Assembly: GCA_049840735.1 (NCBI GenBank)
Contig: JASGJN010000026.1
Span: 96,001-160,000, forward strand
DNA: 64,000 nucleotides
Reading direction: 5' to 3'
From: Anaeromyxobacter sp.
GTDB taxonomy: Bacteria; Myxococcota; Myxococcia; Myxococcales; Anaeromyxobacteraceae
Part shown: piece by piece, positions 1,557 to 24,999 of the stretch
How positions within the stretch are numbered: position 1 is the stretch's first letter
Layout: each line of letters begins with the position of its first letter
Program-made: the position numbers and the translations under genes
The notes under the pieces: model-generated
Told to the model about the DNA's origin: nothing
The model's input: the letters and a program-made list of their open reading frames with translations, nothing else
The model's database searches: none

Positions 1557-3635
1557 TCAGGGTGCGGGCGCCTGGGCCCGCGCCGGCTCGGCCCCGGCGC
1601 CGCCCAGGTACCCCCGGATCCAGCCCAGGACCTCGTCGTGGAACACCTTCGCGTTCCGGGGCTTCAGGATCCAGTGATTCTCGTCGGGGAACACCATCAG
1701 GCGGGAGGGAATGCCCCTGCGCTGCAGCGCGGTGTAGGTGGAGATGCCCTGCGTCACCGTCACGCGGAAGTCACGCTCGCCGTGGGTGACGAAGGTGGGG
1801 GTCTTCCAGCGCTCCACGAAGCGGTGCGGCGACCAGCGGGCGTAGGACTCCGGGTTCTGCCAGGGGGTCCCCTTCAGCTCCCACTCGGGGAACCAGAGCT
1901 CCTCGGTGTCGTAGTAGGCGGCCTCCAGGTGGAAGTCGCCGGCGTGGGCCACGAGGCACCGGAACCGGTCGGTGTGGCCGTTGATCCAGTTCACCATGTA
2001 GCCGCCGTAGCTGGCCCCCGCGGCGCACATGCGCTGGCCGTCGGCCACCCCCGCCGCGATGCCGGCGTCCGCCAGCCGCATGATGTCCTGGAAGGGCGTG
2101 CCGCCCCAGTCGTCACGCACTGCGTCGACGTAAGCCTGCCCCCAGCCGGTGGAGCCGCGGGGGTTGGGCAGGATCACCGCCCACCCCTGGGCGGCGTAGA
2201 GCTGCGGGTTCCAGCGGTAGCCCCAGCCGTCGTGCCAGGCGCCCTGCGGGCCGCCGTGGATGAGCACCACCGCTGGGTGGCGCTCGCCCTCCCGGTGGCC
2301 GGGCGGCAGGACCAGCCAGCCGTGGATGTCCTTCCCGTCCTCGCCCGTGGTCGTGAGCGCCCGGACCTCGCCCAGGGCGATGCCGGAGAGGGCCTTCTGG
2401 CCGAAGCTGGTCAGCGGCCGGGCCGCGAGCTCGCCGCCGGCCTTCTCCAGCCGCACCACCTCGGCGGGGGCGCGCATGGAGGAGGCCAGCGCCACCGCCA
2501 CCTTGCCGTCGGCGCTGGTGGAGAGGCCGTCCAGCTCCAGGCCGCGGGTCAGCCGCGCGATGGCGCCGCTGGCCACGTCGAGCTCGTAGAGCTCGCTCCG
2601 CCCGGCGGTCTCGGCCAGGAAGCGGAGCGCCTTGCCGCCGCGGGTCCAGTGCAGCTCGCTGGCGGAGAGGTCGAAGGCGGCCGTCAGGTCCTTCGCGCCG
2701 GAGCCGTCCACCGCCGCCAGCATCACCCGGTGGCGATCCGACTCGTACCCGGCGCGGGCCTGGGAGAGCCAGGCCAGCCGCTTGCCGTCCGGGCTCGGGC
2801 GCGGGGTGCCGTCCCAGCCCGCGCCGCTGGTGAGCTGGCGCAGCGGGCCGCCGGCCACCGGCACGGCGTAGAGGTCGGCGTTGGTGGAGGTGGCCTCGAC
2901 CGCGTCGGTCATGGCCGTCACGTAGAGCGTCCGGCCGTCGGGGCTGAAGGCCAGGTCGGCGCCGCCGCCGCGGTGGCCGGGGGGCACGTCGCGTTCACCC
3001 GGGGTGAGGTCCGTCGCCGGCTTGCCGTCCAGCGGCACCAGCAGCGCGTGGGCGCGCCCGCGGCCGCGCCACTCGTCCCAGTGGCGGAAGAGCAGGCCTG
3101 TGGCCAGGTGCGGCCGCTTCGCGGCCTCGTCCTGCGAGCGCTGGTTGCAGGCCGCGTCGGCCCCGCAGGCCGGATCCACCTCCGCGGTGACCAGGAGCGC
3201 GCGCCCGTCCGGCGCCCAGGCGATGGCGTCCACGCCGCCGGGGAGCCCGGTCACCCGGCGCGCCTCGCCGCCGGCCAGGTCGATCACCCAGGCCTGGCGC
3301 GAGCCGCTGCGTGCCGAGCCGAAGGCGAGCTGCCGGCCGTCGGGTGAGAAGACGGGGCCGGAGACGCGCTCTTCGCCGAAGGTGAGCTGCCGTGCGGGGC
3401 CGCCCGCGGAGGGCACCACGAAGAGCGACGAGAAGAGCCGCTCGCCGTCTTGCGACGCGCGGGCCACCGTGAACGCGACCAGCCGTCCATCCGGGGCAAG
3501 CGCCGGCTCGGCCACCCGCTCGATCGCCAGCAGATCGGTGATGCTCAGCGGGCGGGCTCCGGGCGGAGCGGCCTGCGCGGGTACGGCGGGAGCAGCGAGG
3601 AGGAGGGCCGAAGCGAGCGGGAGCCAGCAGGGCAT
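1557..3635 (-). CDS. Secreted S9 family (prolyl oligopeptidase/acylaminoacyl) peptidase
   Basis: Signal peptide MPCWLPLASALLLAAP; PD40-like FSPDG repeats; IHGGP, GASYGG nucleophile, D and H (DENHW). Start moved from 3959 to ATG 3635. Confidence 0.9.
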   Translation of the reverse strand: MPCWLPLASALLLAAPAVPAQAAPPGARPLSITDLLAIERVAEPALAPDGRLVAFTVARASQDGERLFSSLFVVPSAGGPARQLTFGEERVSGPVFSPDGRQLAFGSARSGSRQAWVIDLAGGEARRVTGLPGGVDAIAWAPDGRALLVTAEVDPACGADAACNQRSQDEAAKRPHLATGLLFRHWDEWRGRGRAHALLVPLDGKPATDLTPGERDVPPGHRGGGADLAFSPDGRTLYVTAMTDAVEATSTNADLYAVPVAGGPLRQLTSGAGWDGTPRPSPDGKRLAWLSQARAGYESDRHRVMLAAVDGSGAKDLTAAFDLSASELHWTRGGKALRFLAETAGRSELYELDVASGAIARLTRGLELDGLSTSADGKVAVALASSMRAPAEVVRLEKAGGELAARPLTSFGQKALSGIALGEVRALTTTGEDGKDIHGWLVLPPGHREGERHPAVVLIHGGPQGAWHDGWGYRWNPQLYAAQGWAVILPNPRGSTGWGQAYVDAVRDDWGGTPFQDIMRLADAGIAAGVADGQRMCAAGASYGGYMVNWINGHTDRFRCLVAHAGDFHLEAAYYDTEELWFPEWELKGTPWQNPESYARWSPHRFVERWKTPTFVTHGERDFRVTVTQGISTYTALQRRGIPSRLMVFPDENHWILKPRNAKVFHDEVLGWIRGYLGGAGAEPARAQAPAP

Positions 3636-5558: not shown

Positions 5559-6019
5559 GCGCGCCACGGTCCGGCGGCGCCCTTCGACTCCGCCGCGGCT
5601 TCGCGGCGGCTACGCTCAGGGCGAACGGTGGTCCACTCCGTTCGGGCTGAGGGTGGCGTGCCCGGGCGACCGTAGGCGCGCACAGTCCGGCGGCGGCCCT
5701 TCGACTCCGCCGCGGCTTCGCCGCGGCTACGCTCAGGGCGAACGGTGCTCCTCCGTTCGGGCTGAGGGTGGCGAGCCCGAGAGGCCTTAGGCGCGGGCGG
5801 TCCAGCGGCGCCCTTCGACTCCGCCGCGGCTTCGCCGCGGCTACGCTCAGGGCGAACGGTGGTCCTCCGTTCGGGCTGAGAGTGGCGAGCCCGGGCGACC
5901 GTAGGCGCGCACAGTCCGGCGGCGGCCCTTCGACTCCGCCGCGGCTACGCTCAGGGCGAACGTGTTCCTCCGTTCGGGCTGAGCGTAGCGAGCCCGCAGG
6001 GCTCGCGGAGTCGAAGCCC
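5552..6019. repeat. Tandem (BIME-like) array of REP-like elements: 4 direct units of ~115 bp plus one inverted copy
   Basis: CCTTCGACTCC starts at 5581, 5698, 5812, 5927 (periods 117/114/115) with similar linkers; inverted copy about 5970-6017. Confidence 0.9.
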
Positions 6020-19954: not shown

Positions 19955-22135
19955 ATGAAGCGCGTCCGCGTCGCCCTCCTGTGGCACATGCACCAGCCCC
20001 TCTACCGCGAGCCGGAGACGGGCGAGTACCTCATGCCCTGGGTCCGGCTGCACGCGACGCGCGCGTACAACGACATGGCGTGGATCCTGGAGCGCCACCC
20101 CGGCGTCCGCTGCACGGTCAACTTCGTGCCGGTGCTGCTGGAGCAGCTCGATGACTACGTGGAGGGGCGGGCCCGCGACCGGTTCCTGGACCTGACCGCG
20201 CGCCCGCCGGGCGACCTCACCGCCGAGGAGCGCCAGACCATCCTGCGGTCGTTCTTCATGGTGGGCTGGGAGACCAACATCCAGCCGCTGCCGCGCTACT
20301 GGGAGCTGCTCCAGAAGCGCGGCCGGGACCTGCGCCACGTGGACCTGGCCAAGCTGGCCCAGGGCTTCGGCGACCAGGAGCTCACCGACCTCCAGGTGCT
20401 CTTCAACCTGGCGTGGATGGGCTTCGGCGCGCTGGCTGACGAGCCGGCGCTGCGCGCGCTGCGGGAGAAGGGGCGGGACTTCACCCGCGCCGACGTGGCC
20501 ACGCTGCTCTCCGCCCAGTCGAGCATCGTGGCGGGGATCATCCCGCGCTGGCGGCGGCTGCAGGAGCGCGGGCAGGTGGAGCTCTCCTCCACGCCCTACT
20601 ACCACCCCATCCTCCCGCTGGTCTGCGACACCGACGCGGCCCGCCGCGCCATGCCGGGCGCGCACCTGCCGCCGCGCTTCGTCCACCCCGAGGACGCGCG
20701 CTGGCACGTCCGCGAGGCCGTGGCCACGCACGCCCGCCGCTTCGGCGCGCCGCCCGCCGGCATGTGGCCGGCGGAGGGCTCGGTCTCGCCCGAGGCGGTG
20801 GAGGTGCTGGCCAGCGAGGGCGTGCGCTGGGCGGCGAGCGACGAGGGCGTGCTGCTCCAGTCGCTGGGGCCGGGCGCCTCGCGGCTGCGCTCGCTCTACC
20901 GCCCCTGGCGCGTGACCGCCGGGCCGGGGCGCGAGCTGGCCATGCTCTTCCGCGACCGCTCGCTCTCCGACGTGATCGGCTTCACCTACTCGAAGGTGGC
21001 CGCCAAGCACGCCGTGCAGGACTTCATCGCCCATCTGCAGGGCGTGGGCGAGGCCTGGCAGCACGAGGGGCAGCCCGGCCCGGCCACCGTGGGCGTGTTC
21101 CTCGACGGCGAGAACGCCTGGGAGCACTACCCGAACTCCGGCCACGAGTTCCTGGACCGGTTCTACGGCGCGCTGGAGTCGCACCAGGACCTCCAGACGG
21201 TGACGCTCTCCGAGGCCACCGCCGACGCGCCCGGGCCGGTCATCCCGCGCATCCACTCCGGCTCCTGGATCGAGGCCAACTACCGGATCTGGATGGGCCA
21301 CGCCGAGGACCGGCAGGCCTGGGCCGCGCTGGGCAAGGCGCGCGAGATCGTGGCGCAGGCCGAGGCGGCCGGGACGGTGCCGGCGGAGCGGCTGGAGCGG
21401 GCCCGCCGCCACCTGTACGCGGCCGAGGGCTCGGACTGGTACTGGTGGTACGGCGAGGACTTCACCACCGAGCTGGCGGCGGAGTTCGACGGCCTCTTCC
21501 GCAACCACGTGATCCGGGCCGCGCTGCTGTGCGGCGCCCACCCGCCGCCCGAGGCGCTCACGCCCATCAAGCGCGCCGGCGGCGCCTCCGCCACCGGCCT
21601 CGAGGCGAAGCCGCTGCGCGAGCCGACGCTCCTGCTCACGCCGGAGCTGGACGGCAGGGAGACCACCTACTTCGAGTGGCAGGGCAGCGGCCTCTACCGC
21701 CCCGGCCAGCACCGCGGCTCGATGTTCGGCGGCGCGCAGGCCTTCCACGTGCTGCGCTACGGCTTCGACCTGGACGCGCTCTACGTCCGCCTCGACCCCG
21801 CCGAGTCGCCGGCCCGCTCGGCCGAGGTGGCCACGCACCTGCGCCTCACCTTCATGCTGCCGGACCGCCAGGCCTGGCTCGACTTCCCCATCCTGCCCGA
21901 CGGCCAGCGCCACGCCGGCCAGCTGCAGGGCAAGGCCGCCGGCCAGATCGCCTTCGCGCAGGTGGTCGAGCTGGCCGTCCCGTTCCGCGCCCTGGACCTC
22001 CCGCCCGGCCTGCAGGTGGCGGTGAGCGTGACCGCGCTCCGCAACGAGGTCGAGGTGGAGCGGCTGCCGCGCTACGGCTTCCTGCACTTCACCGTGCCGG
22101 ACGCCGACTTCGAGCGGGTGAACTGGCGGGTGTAG
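19955..22135 (+). CDS. Glycoside hydrolase family 57 (amylopullulanase-like)
   Basis: WHMHQP, YYHPILP, WPAEG, FRD..LSD, LDGENAWE, AEGSDWYWW. Confidence 0.93.
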   Translation: MKRVRVALLWHMHQPLYREPETGEYLMPWVRLHATRAYNDMAWILERHPGVRCTVNFVPVLLEQLDDYVEGRARDRFLDLTARPPGDLTAEERQTILRSFFMVGWETNIQPLPRYWELLQKRGRDLRHVDLAKLAQGFGDQELTDLQVLFNLAWMGFGALADEPALRALREKGRDFTRADVATLLSAQSSIVAGIIPRWRRLQERGQVELSSTPYYHPILPLVCDTDAARRAMPGAHLPPRFVHPEDARWHVREAVATHARRFGAPPAGMWPAEGSVSPEAVEVLASEGVRWAASDEGVLLQSLGPGASRLRSLYRPWRVTAGPGRELAMLFRDRSLSDVIGFTYSKVAAKHAVQDFIAHLQGVGEAWQHEGQPGPATVGVFLDGENAWEHYPNSGHEFLDRFYGALESHQDLQTVTLSEATADAPGPVIPRIHSGSWIEANYRIWMGHAEDRQAWAALGKAREIVAQAEAAGTVPAERLERARRHLYAAEGSDWYWWYGEDFTTELAAEFDGLFRNHVIRAALLCGAHPPPEALTPIKRAGGASATGLEAKPLREPTLLLTPELDGRETTYFEWQGSGLYRPGQHRGSMFGGAQAFHVLRYGFDLDALYVRLDPAESPARSAEVATHLRLTFMLPDRQAWLDFPILPDGQRHAGQLQGKAAGQIAFAQVVELAVPFRALDLPPGLQVAVSVTALRNEVEVERLPRYGFLHFTVPDADFERVNWRV

Positions 22136-22190
22136 CGGCGTTCTCCCGCTGAGCCGTGCTCCGGATCCGTTCGGCCTTCTATGAAGCGGC

Positions 22191-22485
22191 GTCCCCGGTC
22201 AAGGGCCGGTGATGTCGTTTGTCCTGAAGCCTGGGCGGCGCTGGTTGGCCATCGGTCAGGGAGTCAGGCGAACGCGAGTTCCATCAGCCTTCTATTCGCG
22301 CTCAACAGGGGCGGCAGTGCCGCCGGCGCAGTGGGGGATTCGAGCAGGGGGCGCCATCTGAGCGACGGCCGTTCCTGGTGACCGGCCAAGGCCGAACTCG
22401 CGCTCACCCTGTCTCGAAACCCGCTTTCGCCTCACTCCCGGATCTCCGGCCCGGCGTCCGCCCGACTGGGTCCGATTTCGGTCGT
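22191..22485 (-). ncRNA. Putative bridge/seek RNA of the IS1111 element (boundaries approximate)
   Basis: Non-coding region downstream of the transposase with target-matching segments at 22388-22397 and 22354-22364 and element-end-matching segments at 22279-22295, each framed by short stems. Confidence 0.75.
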
Positions 22486-23525
22486 CTAGGCCATCGCGTT
22501 TCCCCTGCAGGTGCGGCTGCCGTCGAAGTCCTTCCCGTCCCTCATCATCGCGAACAGGATTCCGGAGAGTTTGCGCGCCAGCGCCACGACGGCGACTGCG
22601 CGTCCCCTCCGCCGGTGGATCTTCCCCGCCCATTCGCGCAGCGGTAGCGACTCTGCGCTCTTGCTGCGCAAGACGCAGTGCGCGGCCTGGACGAGAAGCC
22701 AGCGCACCCTGGCGTTGCCGGTCTTGGTGATCCGCCCCTTGCGCTGTTTCTCGCCCGAGCTCAGCTCGCTAGGGACCAGGCCGCAGTAGGCGGACACCTG
22801 CTGGGCACTCTGGAAGCGCTTGGGATCATCGATGACGACGTCGTATGCGATGGCCGTCACGATGCCCACGCCTGGCGCCGTCGTGAGCCTCCGTACCACT
22901 GCGCTGTCGCGGGCGATGGCCTCGAGGTCAGCGTCGGCCTTGGCGATCCGGGCGTTCAGCGTGTCGAACATCAGCAGCAACGGCTCGATCTCGTCGCGGA
23001 CCTCGTCCGGCAGGGCCCATCTCATCTCCCAACACCACCCGCGCGAAGTGCTCGGCTTCGCAGCTCGGGGCCCGTAGCCCGTGGCTCCGCAAGGACGTCC
23101 GGGTCACCGTGATGAACCGCGACCTGGTGCGGACCAGCGTGTCTCTCACCGACAGGCGGACAGCGACCGTCCGCCGGGATTCCGACCTCCGGTGGGCCGC
23201 TCGGTAGGTCCCTGAACGGCAAGCCTCGGCCAGCGCTCGGGCATCTCGCCGATCTGGTCTTTACCCGCCTCGTCCGCGTCCCGTACATCGGCGCGTAGTT
23301 CGGGTCGGCCACGATCACTTCGTGCCCGAGCGATTCGATGTGCCGCGCCACCCATTCGCTTTCCGTGGAGGCCTCCAGCAGGAGCTTGGCCCGCGGCCTG
23401 TTCGCGAGCACCTCGGCGAACCGGTCGGCCCGGGTGGGGATCCGCACCTCCAGAACCCCGCCCTCCGCGTTCAGGATGCAAAGCTGGCTGTCCTTCTTGT
23501 GCAGGTCGATGCCAATATGGTCCAC
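22486..23525 (-). CDS. IS110-family DEDD recombinase/transposase (two apparent frameshifts, ~23255 and ~23020)
   Basis: GIDLHK, LEAS, KT[D]RRDA after correction, PGVG, GLVPSELSSG, GRITKTGN, VALARKL. Confidence 0.92.
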
Positions 23526-23612
23526 GGCTGGTCTCCACTCTCTGCGGCTCTGACCGCGTTGTGGGGCATTCGTGCCACCACCCCGAGGTGGAGGCCAGCC
23601 GCTTCATTCCAT

Positions 23613-23651
23613 CTGAGCGTAGCGAGCCCGCAGGGCTCGCGGAGTCGAAGG
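23613..23651 (-). repeat. Remainder of the REP interrupted by the IS (other part at 22167-22177)
   Basis: CTGAGCGTAGCGAGCCCGCAGGGCTCGCGGAGTCGAAGG, same hairpin as the copies at 5979 and 18550. Confidence 0.9.
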
Positions 23652-23763
23652 CCAGGGGTTCACTTCCAGGCACCTCCTCCCGATCTTGCTGGATCTGGCA
23701 AACCGGTTGGCTATACAAACTGAACCGAGGGTAGGGCCCGACTGGACCGGGCCGGGGGGACGC

Positions 23764-24999
23764 ATGACCGCGAACGAGGGCACGCCAACGCTCCAGGAGT
23801 GGACGGAGCGGTACGAGCAGTGGACGGGCAAGGACCTGGGGTTCAGCCGCGTGGCGGCGGGGCTGTTCCTGCTGGTCGGGGCGGGGTTGGTGCTCGCAGA
23901 GCACTGGCGCTGGGCGTACGTGGCCGTCGCGGCGGCGCCCGTGTTTATCTGTCTGGCCCGGCTGATCGAATCCAGCGTCCATCGCTGGACGGCGCTCAAG
24001 CGCGCAGACCTCGAACAGCCCATCCGACCGCGGCCTCGGGAGCTGGGGTGGGTCGCACTCGGGATCGGCGTGGCCGCCGGCATGGTCGTCCTGGGCTGGC
24101 CAGAGTTCTGGATCGGGTTCGATCCCTGGTTCTTCTTCGGGCTCGCGCTGCTGATCACCGCCGCGGCGTTCGCCGTGGGGCTTCCGATCGTGGGGGAGGA
24201 TACGTCCTGGGCCGCCGTGCTGCTGGCTGGTGCCGGAGGTGCATCGCTCCTCTCGGAGGCCGGGGTCCTGGGCGCGGCGGTCGTCTCCGGATCCGGCCTC
24301 CTGCTGCTCAGCACCGGCGCTCGCGTGGCGCGCGACTACCGGCGCACGCGAAAAGGCTTCGTCGCGGCCTGGAGCGAGGCGCTTCGCAGGTCGCCCCCGC
24401 AGCGCGACCTCGTCAGGGTCGCGTACGACACCCGCAGCCTGGCCACGCTCTCCGCCCACGCGCGCGGCGTCGGAGACGTGATCGTGGGTCTCTGGATGTT
24501 GGCGGCTGCCGGGTTCAACGAGCTGTTTGGAGCGTCAGTCGGTCTGCCCATGCTCCTTGGGACGCTGCTCGTGTACCTGGCGGTCCTGGCGCCGGCGCGC
24601 CGCTACTACCAGCGGACCGGGCTCGTAGCCGCCGATCCCGGAAAGCTGATCTCGAAGATGCGAAGGATCGGGCTGCCGCTAGCCATCGTGGTCCTGCTCT
24701 TCCAGGCGTCCTTCGCGGCGATGATGCTGCACGGGGCGACGCGCTGGATCTGCATGGGGCTCCTCATCACGCCGGCGGCCCTGCTCCCGTGGGTTGCCAA
24801 CGGGAACCTGGATGCATTCATGGTGATCCCGCTGTCGCAAATCCCGTTCACCGTGGTGCGGGATCCGGGCGTCAACACGATGACCTGGGTGGTCCTGGGC
24901 ATCTCGCTGGCGGCGTTCGGCCTCTTCGGCCACGTCAGGTTCCAGCAGCTCAGCGCGAAGCTCCGCGGACCGCCTCCTGGCGAAGCAGCCTCCACATGA
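23764..24999 (+). CDS. Multi-pass membrane hypothetical protein
   Basis: About 12 hydrophobic segments; GGGGGA SD; stop overlaps the next ATG (ATGA). Confidence 0.7.
   Translation: MTANEGTPTLQEWTERYEQWTGKDLGFSRVAAGLFLLVGAGLVLAEHWRWAYVAVAAAPVFICLARLIESSVHRWTALKRADLEQPIRPRPRELGWVALGIGVAAGMVVLGWPEFWIGFDPWFFFGLALLITAAAFAVGLPIVGEDTSWAAVLLAGAGGASLLSEAGVLGAAVVSGSGLLLLSTGARVARDYRRTRKGFVAAWSEALRRSPPQRDLVRVAYDTRSLATLSAHARGVGDVIVGLWMLAAAGFNELFGASVGLPMLLGTLLVYLAVLAPARRYYQRTGLVAADPGKLISKMRRIGLPLAIVVLLFQASFAAMMLHGATRWICMGLLITPAALLPWVANGNLDAFMVIPLSQIPFTVVRDPGVNTMTWVVLGISLAAFGLFGHVRFQQLSAKLRGPPPGEAAST

Follow-up and report, generated by a model that had tools for sequence, protein, structure and literature searches.

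How does an insertion sequence come to occupy one and the same position within a repeat of its host, and is the information for that choice written in its own DNA? The question is raised by a locus in Anaeromyxobacter sp. (Myxococcota; assembly GCA_049840735.1, contig JASGJN010000026.1), where an insertion sequence interrupts a REP-like repeat. The locus lies in a stretch of 64,000 nucleotides (contig positions 96,001 to 160,000, forward strand), which we refer to as the window and whose positions are used throughout. An earlier note on this DNA had proposed that the element encodes an RNA-guided recombinase whose specificity can be read from the sequence. The stretch concerned is very probably the target-binding loop of an IS1111-type guide RNA (a seekRNA or bridge RNA): its anatomy and its covariation are observed here, and its role as an RNA is assigned by analogy with published systems. 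The features that bear on this reading are collected in Table 1.

Table 1. Features of the insertion sequence, of its predicted guide RNA and of the interrupted host repeat, in window coordinates.
Feature	Position	Strand	Basis or remark
Left target half GTTCGGC, part of host REP-like repeat	22169..22175	+	Flank shared by all 5 copies; runs on into GAGCG at 101 empty sites
Core CT, left copy	22176..22177	+	Junction comparison with empty sites
IS1111-type insertion sequence	22178..23612	- (transposase sense)	5 copies, 98-100% identical
Right end (transposase sense): 3-nt terminal extension AGA and 10-bp subterminal inverted repeat GCCGCTTCAT	22178..22190	-	
-35-like hexamer TTGACC, ~21 nt from right tip	22197..22202	-	Conserved as TTGAC in relatives
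Donor-guide-like segment AAUAGAAGG of second loop	22288..22296	-	Right end (AUAGA), core (AG) and first target base G; next base C at 22287
Helices P3 (GCGCC / GAGCGC) and P4 (GGCGGC / GCCGCC), second module	22297..22330	-	Relatives' alignment
Basal helix P1, 3' strand (CGCC CCCUG), closing the target-binding loop	22345..22353	-	Relatives' alignment and fold
Putative 3' guide CGCUC-AG-AUGG	22354..22364	-	5 nt target, core, 4 nt element left end; right-target-guide with handshake-like extension
Distal hairpin P2 between the guides (GGCCG GUCACCAGGAA CGGCC G)	22366..22387	-	Relatives' alignment and fold
Putative 5' guide GUUCGGC-CU-U	22388..22397	-	7 nt target, core, 1 nt element; left-target-guide in the IS621 frame
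Basal helix P1, 5' strand (CAGGG U GAGCGCG)	22399..22411	-	Relatives' alignment and fold
Transposase gene, broken in window copy	22486..23525	-	Split into two frames
Left end (transposase sense): 5-nt terminal extension (AUGGA) and subterminal inverted repeat ATGAAGCGGC	23598..23612	-	
Core CT (right copy) and right target half GAGCG	23613..23619	+	Junction comparison with empty sites
Remainder of interrupted REP-like unit (GAGCGTAG, GC-rich hairpin, CGGAGTCGAAGGCCAGG)	23615..23657	+	Consensus of 101 sites

The insertion sequence and its transposase

Its sequence places the element in the IS110 family, as an IS1111-type member with a DEDD/Ser transposase, and the family assignment of the earlier note stands. 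The intact sister transposase matches PF01548 (DEDD_Tnp_IS110) with an E value of 3.1e-13, the Transposase_20 domain PF02371 is recovered at E 1e-23 to 1e-24, and the intact protein scores 249.5 bits against NF033542, 'IS110 family RNA-guided transposase', for which the cut-off is 140. Its GID, E, KTDxxDA and Ser-Gly motifs align with those of the solved IS621 and ISCro4 transposases, and GLVPSELSSG aligns with the Ser-Gly of IS621. The 10-bp subterminal inverted repeats lie 3 nt (GCCGCTTCAT) and 5 nt (ATGAAGCGGC) from the tips and are kept in relatives, in which the right end has the conserved form CCGCTTCA[Y/G]AGA. The non-coding regions around the gene measure 308 nt downstream and 89 nt upstream. 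Subterminal repeats of 7-17 bp with short terminal extensions and a long downstream non-coding region are described as features that tell IS1111 members apart from those of the IS110 group (PMC11187229, PMC11208160). The 343 aa of the intact transposase fall within the 330-350 aa usual for IS1111 members.

Five copies of the element are present in the genome, three of them with an intact frame of 343 aa and two, the window copy and one other, frameshifted. Compared with an intact copy, the window copy has gained one base near 23255 and seven near 23018-23029, and Pfam recognises its C-terminal half only (PF02371), the N-terminal domain being cut by the frameshift. The two sequences also differ by 12 substitutions, two of which fall in the RNA region (22384 and 22304). 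Counted with one CT (22178-23614), the element is 1437 bp long in the window copy and ~1429 bp in intact copies. Since its transposase gene is frameshifted, the window copy would rely on the three intact sister copies to move. No further IS110-family gene was found in the genome, all nine matching pieces belonging to the five copies, and a whole-element DNA search returned the five elements and REP-only matches, with no partial copy among them. A search of 36 further genomes from the genus did not recover the element. The nearest relatives of its transposase belong to other phyla, at identities of up to 67%, which together with this absence suggests a recent horizontal arrival.

The target site and the host repeat

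All five copies are inserted in a single orientation into GTTCGGC-CT-GAGCG, between the flanks CCGTTCGGCCT and CTGAGCGTAG, with no duplication beyond the shared core. Empty sites have a single CT, and an inserted element has one at either side; the dinucleotide is therefore the core that the two junctions share. The uninterrupted 14-bp word GTTCGGCCTGAGCG occurs exactly at 101 empty sites in the genome (51 forward, 50 reverse), against 0.18 expected from composition and a single occurrence of the word read backwards; a further 340 sites carry one mismatch and 403 carry two. Within the window, 22 sites with up to two mismatches compare with 2.26 expected. The 101 exact sites share the consensus context CCGTTCGGCCTGAGCGTAG, and a REP-like unit composed of CCGTTCGGCCTGAGCGTAG, a GC-rich hairpin and CGGAGTCGAAGGCCAGG has the target word as its 5' flank. 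The proposal of a 14-bp target in a host REP repeat is borne out by the empty exact sites, and the repeat proves to be abundant.

The abundance of this word sets the genome apart from its relatives. In 30 related genomes the exact word occurs 0-6 times each, with any occurrence at all in four, which argues that the repeat variant has expanded in the present lineage. As the exact site is scarce in these 30 genomes and the element was unfound in the 36, the repeat variant and its putative reader appear particular to this genome among those searched. Paralogous empty sites served as the pre-insertion reference in place of orthologous ones: no orthologous empty site was found in nine same-genus loci, in which the upstream gene is conserved to its stop codon (74-89% identity over its last ~100 bases) and the spacer beyond is unrelated and without REP.

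The REP-like target unit often stands in tandem arrays with a period of ~82-115 bp. Such arrays occur in the window at 5613-5985 and elsewhere in the genome at C10:71754-73778, C20:653872-655304 and C26:251251-251595.

Two junction words flank a hairpin

The non-coding region downstream of the gene carries both junctions of the element in miniature. On the minus strand, which is that of the transposase, the order is GTTCGGCCTT, a hairpin (GGCCG ... CGGCC), U and CGCTCAGATGG. Read on the plus strand, the same layout is CCATCTGAGCG (22354-22364), A (22365), CGGCCGTTCCTGGTGACCGGCC (22366-22387) and AAGGCCGAAC (22388-22397), and the stem GGCCG/CGGCC within CGGCCGTTCCTGGTGACCGGCC is readable on either strand. 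The word GTTCGGCCTT (22397-22388, minus) is identical to the left junction at 22169-22178 on the plus strand, and CGCTCAGATGG (22364-22354, minus) is the reverse complement of the right junction, where CCATCTGAGCG stands at 23609-23619. The two hairpin-flanking segments had been described in this way before, and the description proves correct to the base. So does the division of the words into seven nucleotides of target, CT and one nucleotide of element on one side and four of element, CT and five of target on the other, which the uninterrupted genomic sites bear out. Each of the words GTTCGGCCTT and CCATCTGAGCG occurs twice in the 64-kb window, once at a junction and once in the non-coding region; chance would provide 0.06 and 0.09 occurrences, and none of the 100 dinucleotide-preserving shuffles from which these expectations derive reached two.

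The orientation of the two segments is also informative. Turned to match the transposase, the target is CGCTC-AG-GCCGAAC. With this taken as the top strand, the 5' arm is complementary to its part AGGCCGAAC, and the 3' arm is identical to its part CGCTCAG and so complementary to the bottom strand. In all IS1111 seekRNAs tested in one published study, the complement of the top strand lies 5' of the complement of the bottom strand, and the order is reversed in the IS110 member (PMC11187229). The arm order of the window element is that of the IS1111 seekRNAs.

These arrangements lead us to propose the following mechanism. An RNA would be read in transposase sense from the non-coding region downstream of the gene. 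Its fold would leave two arms single-stranded, in an internal loop with the basal helix P1 on one side and the distal hairpin P2 on the other. Of these, the 5' arm would pair with one strand of the left target half and the CT core, and the 3' arm with the other strand of the core and the right target half. Between them, the arms would direct the DEDD/Ser recombinase to its 14-bp site, which the REP-like repeat of the genome offers about 100 times. A second module further downstream, carrying a copy of the right end and the core, would act as a donor guide.

A scaffold shared with relatives

The structure in this proposal was examined in 80 fetched loci that encode proteins 45-67% identical to the intact transposase. 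Their record labels include Gemmatimonadota, Vicinamibacterales, Rokubacteria/Methylomirabilota, Nitrospinota, Eisenbacteria and others, labels that may mislead where they belong to short metagenome contigs. Behind the gene, these relatives share a two-part scaffold. The first part consists of GAGCGCG, a variable segment of 9-11 nt, a hairpin, a variable segment ending in AG(A/U)UGG, and CGCC; the second consists of UGCGCC, a hairpin, GAGCGCG and AA(Y/G)AGAAGG.UGA.

For 55 distinct relatives, RNAalifold returns four helices. P1 encloses a loop in which the variable segments stand on either side of a hairpin, P2, and P3 and P4 form the second module. Across the 55 sequences, standard pairs fill 94.4% of cells, compared with 30-56% when the partners are slid by one to three columns. 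Compensatory cells number 82, against 27.8 in column shuffles, and none of 500 shuffles reached 82, statistics that overstate independence because the relatives are related to each other. Changes on both sides are seen in 11 of the 20 base pairs. In the second module, P3 is paired in 99.3% and P4 in 86.4% of cells, with compensatory changes at five pairs, and in P2 ten of the 55 relatives have exchanged G-C for A-U. The tally of pair types holds about 55 G-U cells and seven A-C cells, and this excess points to the transposase-sense strand as the folding one. Within the genome, the C/U difference between copies at 22384 likewise keeps its P2 pair, as G-U.

Single sequences are less telling, with z scores of -2.16, -1.11 and -2.88, not far from shuffles. 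Folded alone, the 71 nt of the window sequence reproduce P1 and P2 at a z of -1.11. Folding of this region had been proposed in the earlier note; both helices are seen in the window sequence, and their support comes from the compensatory changes in relatives. Given the modest z scores, the structure rests on comparison and not on the window sequence by itself. An Rfam scan of 21900-23900 on both strands at E <= 1 gave no match, no Rfam 15 model reaching this clade.

When the two-module RNA of 148 nt (22266-22413, minus) is folded alone, a long helix is favoured (z -2.88). In this helix, AAGGCUGAUGGAACUCGCG, from the 3' part of the second loop, is the partner of the 5' P1 strand together with the 5' guide, a pairing that arises because both segments copy the right junction in opposite senses.

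Might the guide be single-stranded DNA instead, a subterminal DNA hairpin with flanking guide bases of the kind found in IS200/IS605 elements? Sequence cannot tell an RNA from DNA of the same strand, and the wobble that marks the folding strand is tolerated as G-T in DNA hairpins too. The transposase, however, is a DEDD/Ser enzyme of the IS110 family and not an HUH enzyme, the guide module lies ~210 nt inside the element, away from the tip, and the RNAs of IS1111 and IS110 relatives co-purify with the transposase and work in trans (PMC11187229). We consider a DNA guide highly improbable. That the molecule is an RNA, binds the transposase and determines the target is carried over to this element from its published relatives. 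Co-purification of an RNA from the non-coding region, and its action in trans, are reported for four IS1111 members and one IS110 member (PMC11187229). An RNA that is made, bound by the transposase and needed for movement is described for ISEc11, ISPa11, ISKpn4, ISPst6 and ISEc21 (PMC11187229) and for IS621 (PMC11208160).

Putative guide segments change with the target

If the two segments were target guides, they should differ between elements with different targets and agree with the flanks of each. Relatives allow this to be examined. Anchoring on a conserved motif of the second loop gave 71 loci, of which 51 had both junctions, set from the subterminal repeats and independently of the guides; these represent 35 distinct guide zones in 23 target classes. 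Each 82-nt guide zone was scored by the summed longest exact matches to the right junction (as reverse complement) and to the left junction (in the same sense). The mean sum was 16.5 for an element's own junctions, against 9.85 over 1056 cross pairs with other target classes. Own matches beat every junction of another target class in 29 of the 35 distinct elements, the six exceptions being L023, L032, L037, L055, L063 and L094. For the window element, the own matches are 10 and 11 nt long, and the best cross sum is 12. A search of wider regions for exact direct and inverted words was discarded, as it was noisy in GC-rich DNA and controls with swapped order gave similar sums.

The co-variation of segments and insertion sites in homologues, which the earlier note suggested as a check, is therefore present: the segments track their own flanks. 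Changing with the flanks, they are thus reprogrammed as targets change, and it is by this behaviour that the target guides of seekRNAs and bridge RNAs are defined. A natural redirection of seekRNA guides has been described for ISEc11 and ISXne4, and so has an experimental one (PMC11187229). Taken with the family of the transposase, the covarying helices and the arm order, this tracking supports the view that the element specifies an RNA-guided recombinase whose specificity is readable from the sequence.

The same comparison bears on a less demanding account, according to which the internal words are relics, either a captured piece of REP or the scar of a nested insertion, and resemble a guide loop by chance. 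The host repeat is indeed very abundant, and words derived from it are common in the genome. Against this, both words contain bases of the element ends that are found in no REP, relatives with 23 other target classes keep both positions matched to their own flanks, and the surrounding helices covary. These findings already contradict a relic origin, which we regard as scarcely credible; a target-binding loop remains the preferred reading.

Some individual relatives are worth describing. The closest, L021, lies on a contig of 1367 bases and has a transposase of 67% protein identity. Its 3' guide CGCTCAGATGG and its left flank CTACGCTCAG are those of the window element, its 5' guide GGCTCATCCTT is different, and its right junction falls off the contig. 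By its sequence, this element looks like a natural half-reprogramming.

A sister element with the 5' guide TGAAGATCCTT lies inside protein-kinase-like genes (L053-L072, L078 and L088, in Vicinamibacterales records). At 16 of 18 such loci, L052 and L073 being the exceptions, the right flank (~2930-3080) translates on the other strand over 42 residues and the left flank keeps the frame. From its place within the kinase frame, the target of this guide would be the codons for VALKI, with the catalytic lysine, in a multi-copy family of kinase paralogues, and not a REP. In L098, the element stands within an array of 18-base tandem repeats (units like CGAAGCGAGTCCYACGAG), and its flanks repeat that unit many times.

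Bases beyond the core

Both arms extend past the core into the ends of the element. At the occupied site their matches are 10 and 11 nt long, at the empty site 9 and 7 nt. With the CT strand taken as top, reverse-complementing the final four bases on the donor's left side gives the AUGG of the 3' arm. Since the arm bases beyond the core match the element ends, they could pair only with a recombined or integrated junction, as handshake guides would. In IS621, two bases at the place equivalent to AUGG form the handshake guide and pair with the donor strand after top-strand exchange (PMC11208158).

The extension is general in the clade. Ten of the 35 elements lacked a clean exact pair of matches and were set aside; in all 25 clean cases, the 3' match continues past the core into the element end, by one nucleotide in three, two in 12 and four in 10. 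The first base beyond the core equals the first left-end base in 47 of 50 cases, essentially a two-state character that follows two clades and so counts for little as independent evidence. A handshake-like role for the extra bases, as first suggested for this locus, is compatible with these comparative data and would apply throughout the clade.

The extra bases (AUGG, and U in the 5' arm) might instead serve mainly in the recognition of integrated junctions during excision, when the circle is formed, and not in strand exchange at insertion. Matches that span flank, core and element end in every clean case fit this reading, as does the published requirement that donor flanks match the seekRNA for movement (PMC11187229). 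The handshake dinucleotides of IS621 are reported to modulate both excision and insertion (PMC13626964), a result that lends itself to either account: it gives the bases a part in excision and, as IS621 uses the same bases in both reactions, keeps the handshake possible. Beyond the core, only the first position tracks the element end well, in the two-clade pattern noted above, and P1 is predicted to include the last G of AUGG as a paired base. Recognition of integrated junctions for excision is as tenable as a handshake; that it should be the main role of these bases we hold to be less likely than not.

A second loop and possible recognition of the donor

The second loop contains a copy of the element's right end. 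In 40 of 41 relatives, the variable base of the segment AAUAGAAGG is the one found in the right end of that element (T/T in 12, C/C in 23, G/G in five), and this correspondence has the highest mutual information in a scan of RNA columns against end positions. Two clades dominate that scan, and only columns 198 (right end) and 112 (first left-end base) are read as meaningful. Judged from these agreements, AAUAGAAGG looks like a right donor guide.

The bases that follow the core in this segment were compared with the target flank. Of 30 distinct combinations, 14 have the same second base in segment and flank, where shuffles give 7.2 (P ~0.003, with relatedness left out of account); for the first base there is no such excess, at 14 against 13.3. 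In the window element, both bases after the core (GC) agree with the flank. The pattern hints that the second base may be a handshake position of the donor loop.

A left donor guide was sought 5' of P3. The signal is weak overall, with an own score of 4.38 against 3.19, and absent for the window element, at 3.5 against 3.64. The donor-binding nucleotides of many IS1111 orthologues are described as lying in a multi-loop and not in a simple internal loop (PMC11208160).

The second loop also holds GAUGGAA (22279-22285, minus), which consists of the last core base and the first six left-end bases in element sense and would have as its partner the DNA strand that the adjoining copy of the right end would also bind. 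As a guide, it was rejected, the match not being kept in relatives.

One arrangement in which these features could be combined is a donor half read by the RNA, with the right arm and one cross-talk target position in the second loop, a left arm read by the protein through the 10-bp repeat, and a long handshake-like extension of up to 4 nt. We offer this as a conjecture that we consider unlikely. Were it true, the element would be a hybrid between the fully RNA-read donor of IS621 and protein-read ends. The constant scaffold with its 23 natural guide sets, one of them aimed at VALKI codons, would be a ready comparative data set on guide length and handshake rules.

Relation to known systems

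The mechanism, the targeting of REP by IS621, ISPa11 and ISPpu9, and the location of the RNA have been in print since 2024, and the known mechanism is unchanged by what is described here. A close parallel is ISPa11, an IS1111 element of Pseudomonas aeruginosa. It too occupies a fixed position in the REP of its host and has a guide RNA from the downstream non-coding region, in which two short segments complement opposite target strands, overlap at the insertion point and have the top-strand match 5' (PMC11187229). Host and target word are different, and the present case is known from sequence alone. Among the plasmid-borne proteobacterial proteins of the IS110 family with which the transposase was compared, none is more than ~36% identical to it.

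ISEc11 and ISXne4 share with the present clade a conserved stem and target-matching bases that have diverged between differently targeted relatives (PMC11187229), here over 23 classes. Their RNA is described in forms of 82 and 154 nt (PMC11187229); the modules of the window element, predicted from structure, are similar at ~70 nt for one and ~150 nt for two. The scaffold sequence, by contrast, is specific to this clade (GAGCGCG ... GCGCC).

The IS621 bridge RNA resembles the present case in its CT core, its REP target and its second loop for the donor (PMC11208160). Its left guide is likewise the top strand of the left target and the core (PMC11208160), and its right guide complements the core and the right target and continues into handshake bases (PMC11208160, PMC11208158). 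Unlike in IS621, the RNA of the window element would lie downstream of the gene, on the strand opposite to that in which CT is top, which is the reversed order of IS1111. The window element also differs in its long (10 bp) subterminal repeats, in a handshake-like extension of up to 4 nt instead of 2, and in having no recognisable left donor guide. ISPpu9 of Pseudomonas putida KT2440, with its small RNA Ssr9, is a further IS110-family element in REP whose RNA gene lies downstream of the transposase (PMC12288879). Extra solo copies of the RNA gene are described for ISPpu9 (PMC12288879), whereas the whole-element search of this genome returned none.

What the locus offers is an element whose site preference can be read from its own DNA, with 14 bp specified and about 100 free sites in the host, and this should aid both annotation and the prediction of its next moves. 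The set of IS1111 guide RNAs gains from it a well-sampled clade, high in GC and spread over several phyla, with 55 distinct RNAs and 23 target classes on one scaffold. This could be of use in studying how IS1111-type bridge systems recognise their donors and what rules govern their guide length and handshake bases. The window element itself is a clean natural example, and to judge from their sequences its three intact sister copies are potentially active.

Possible expression signals

A consensus scan of the linear element for promoters and terminators found none. TTGAC(C) is present in the window element and its relatives, at a distance of 16-23 nt from the tip of the right end. For ISEc11 and ISEc21, a promoter that spans the circle junction has been described (PMC11187229), and by analogy TTGAC(C) could be the -35 element of a promoter that is completed when the ends of the circle are joined.
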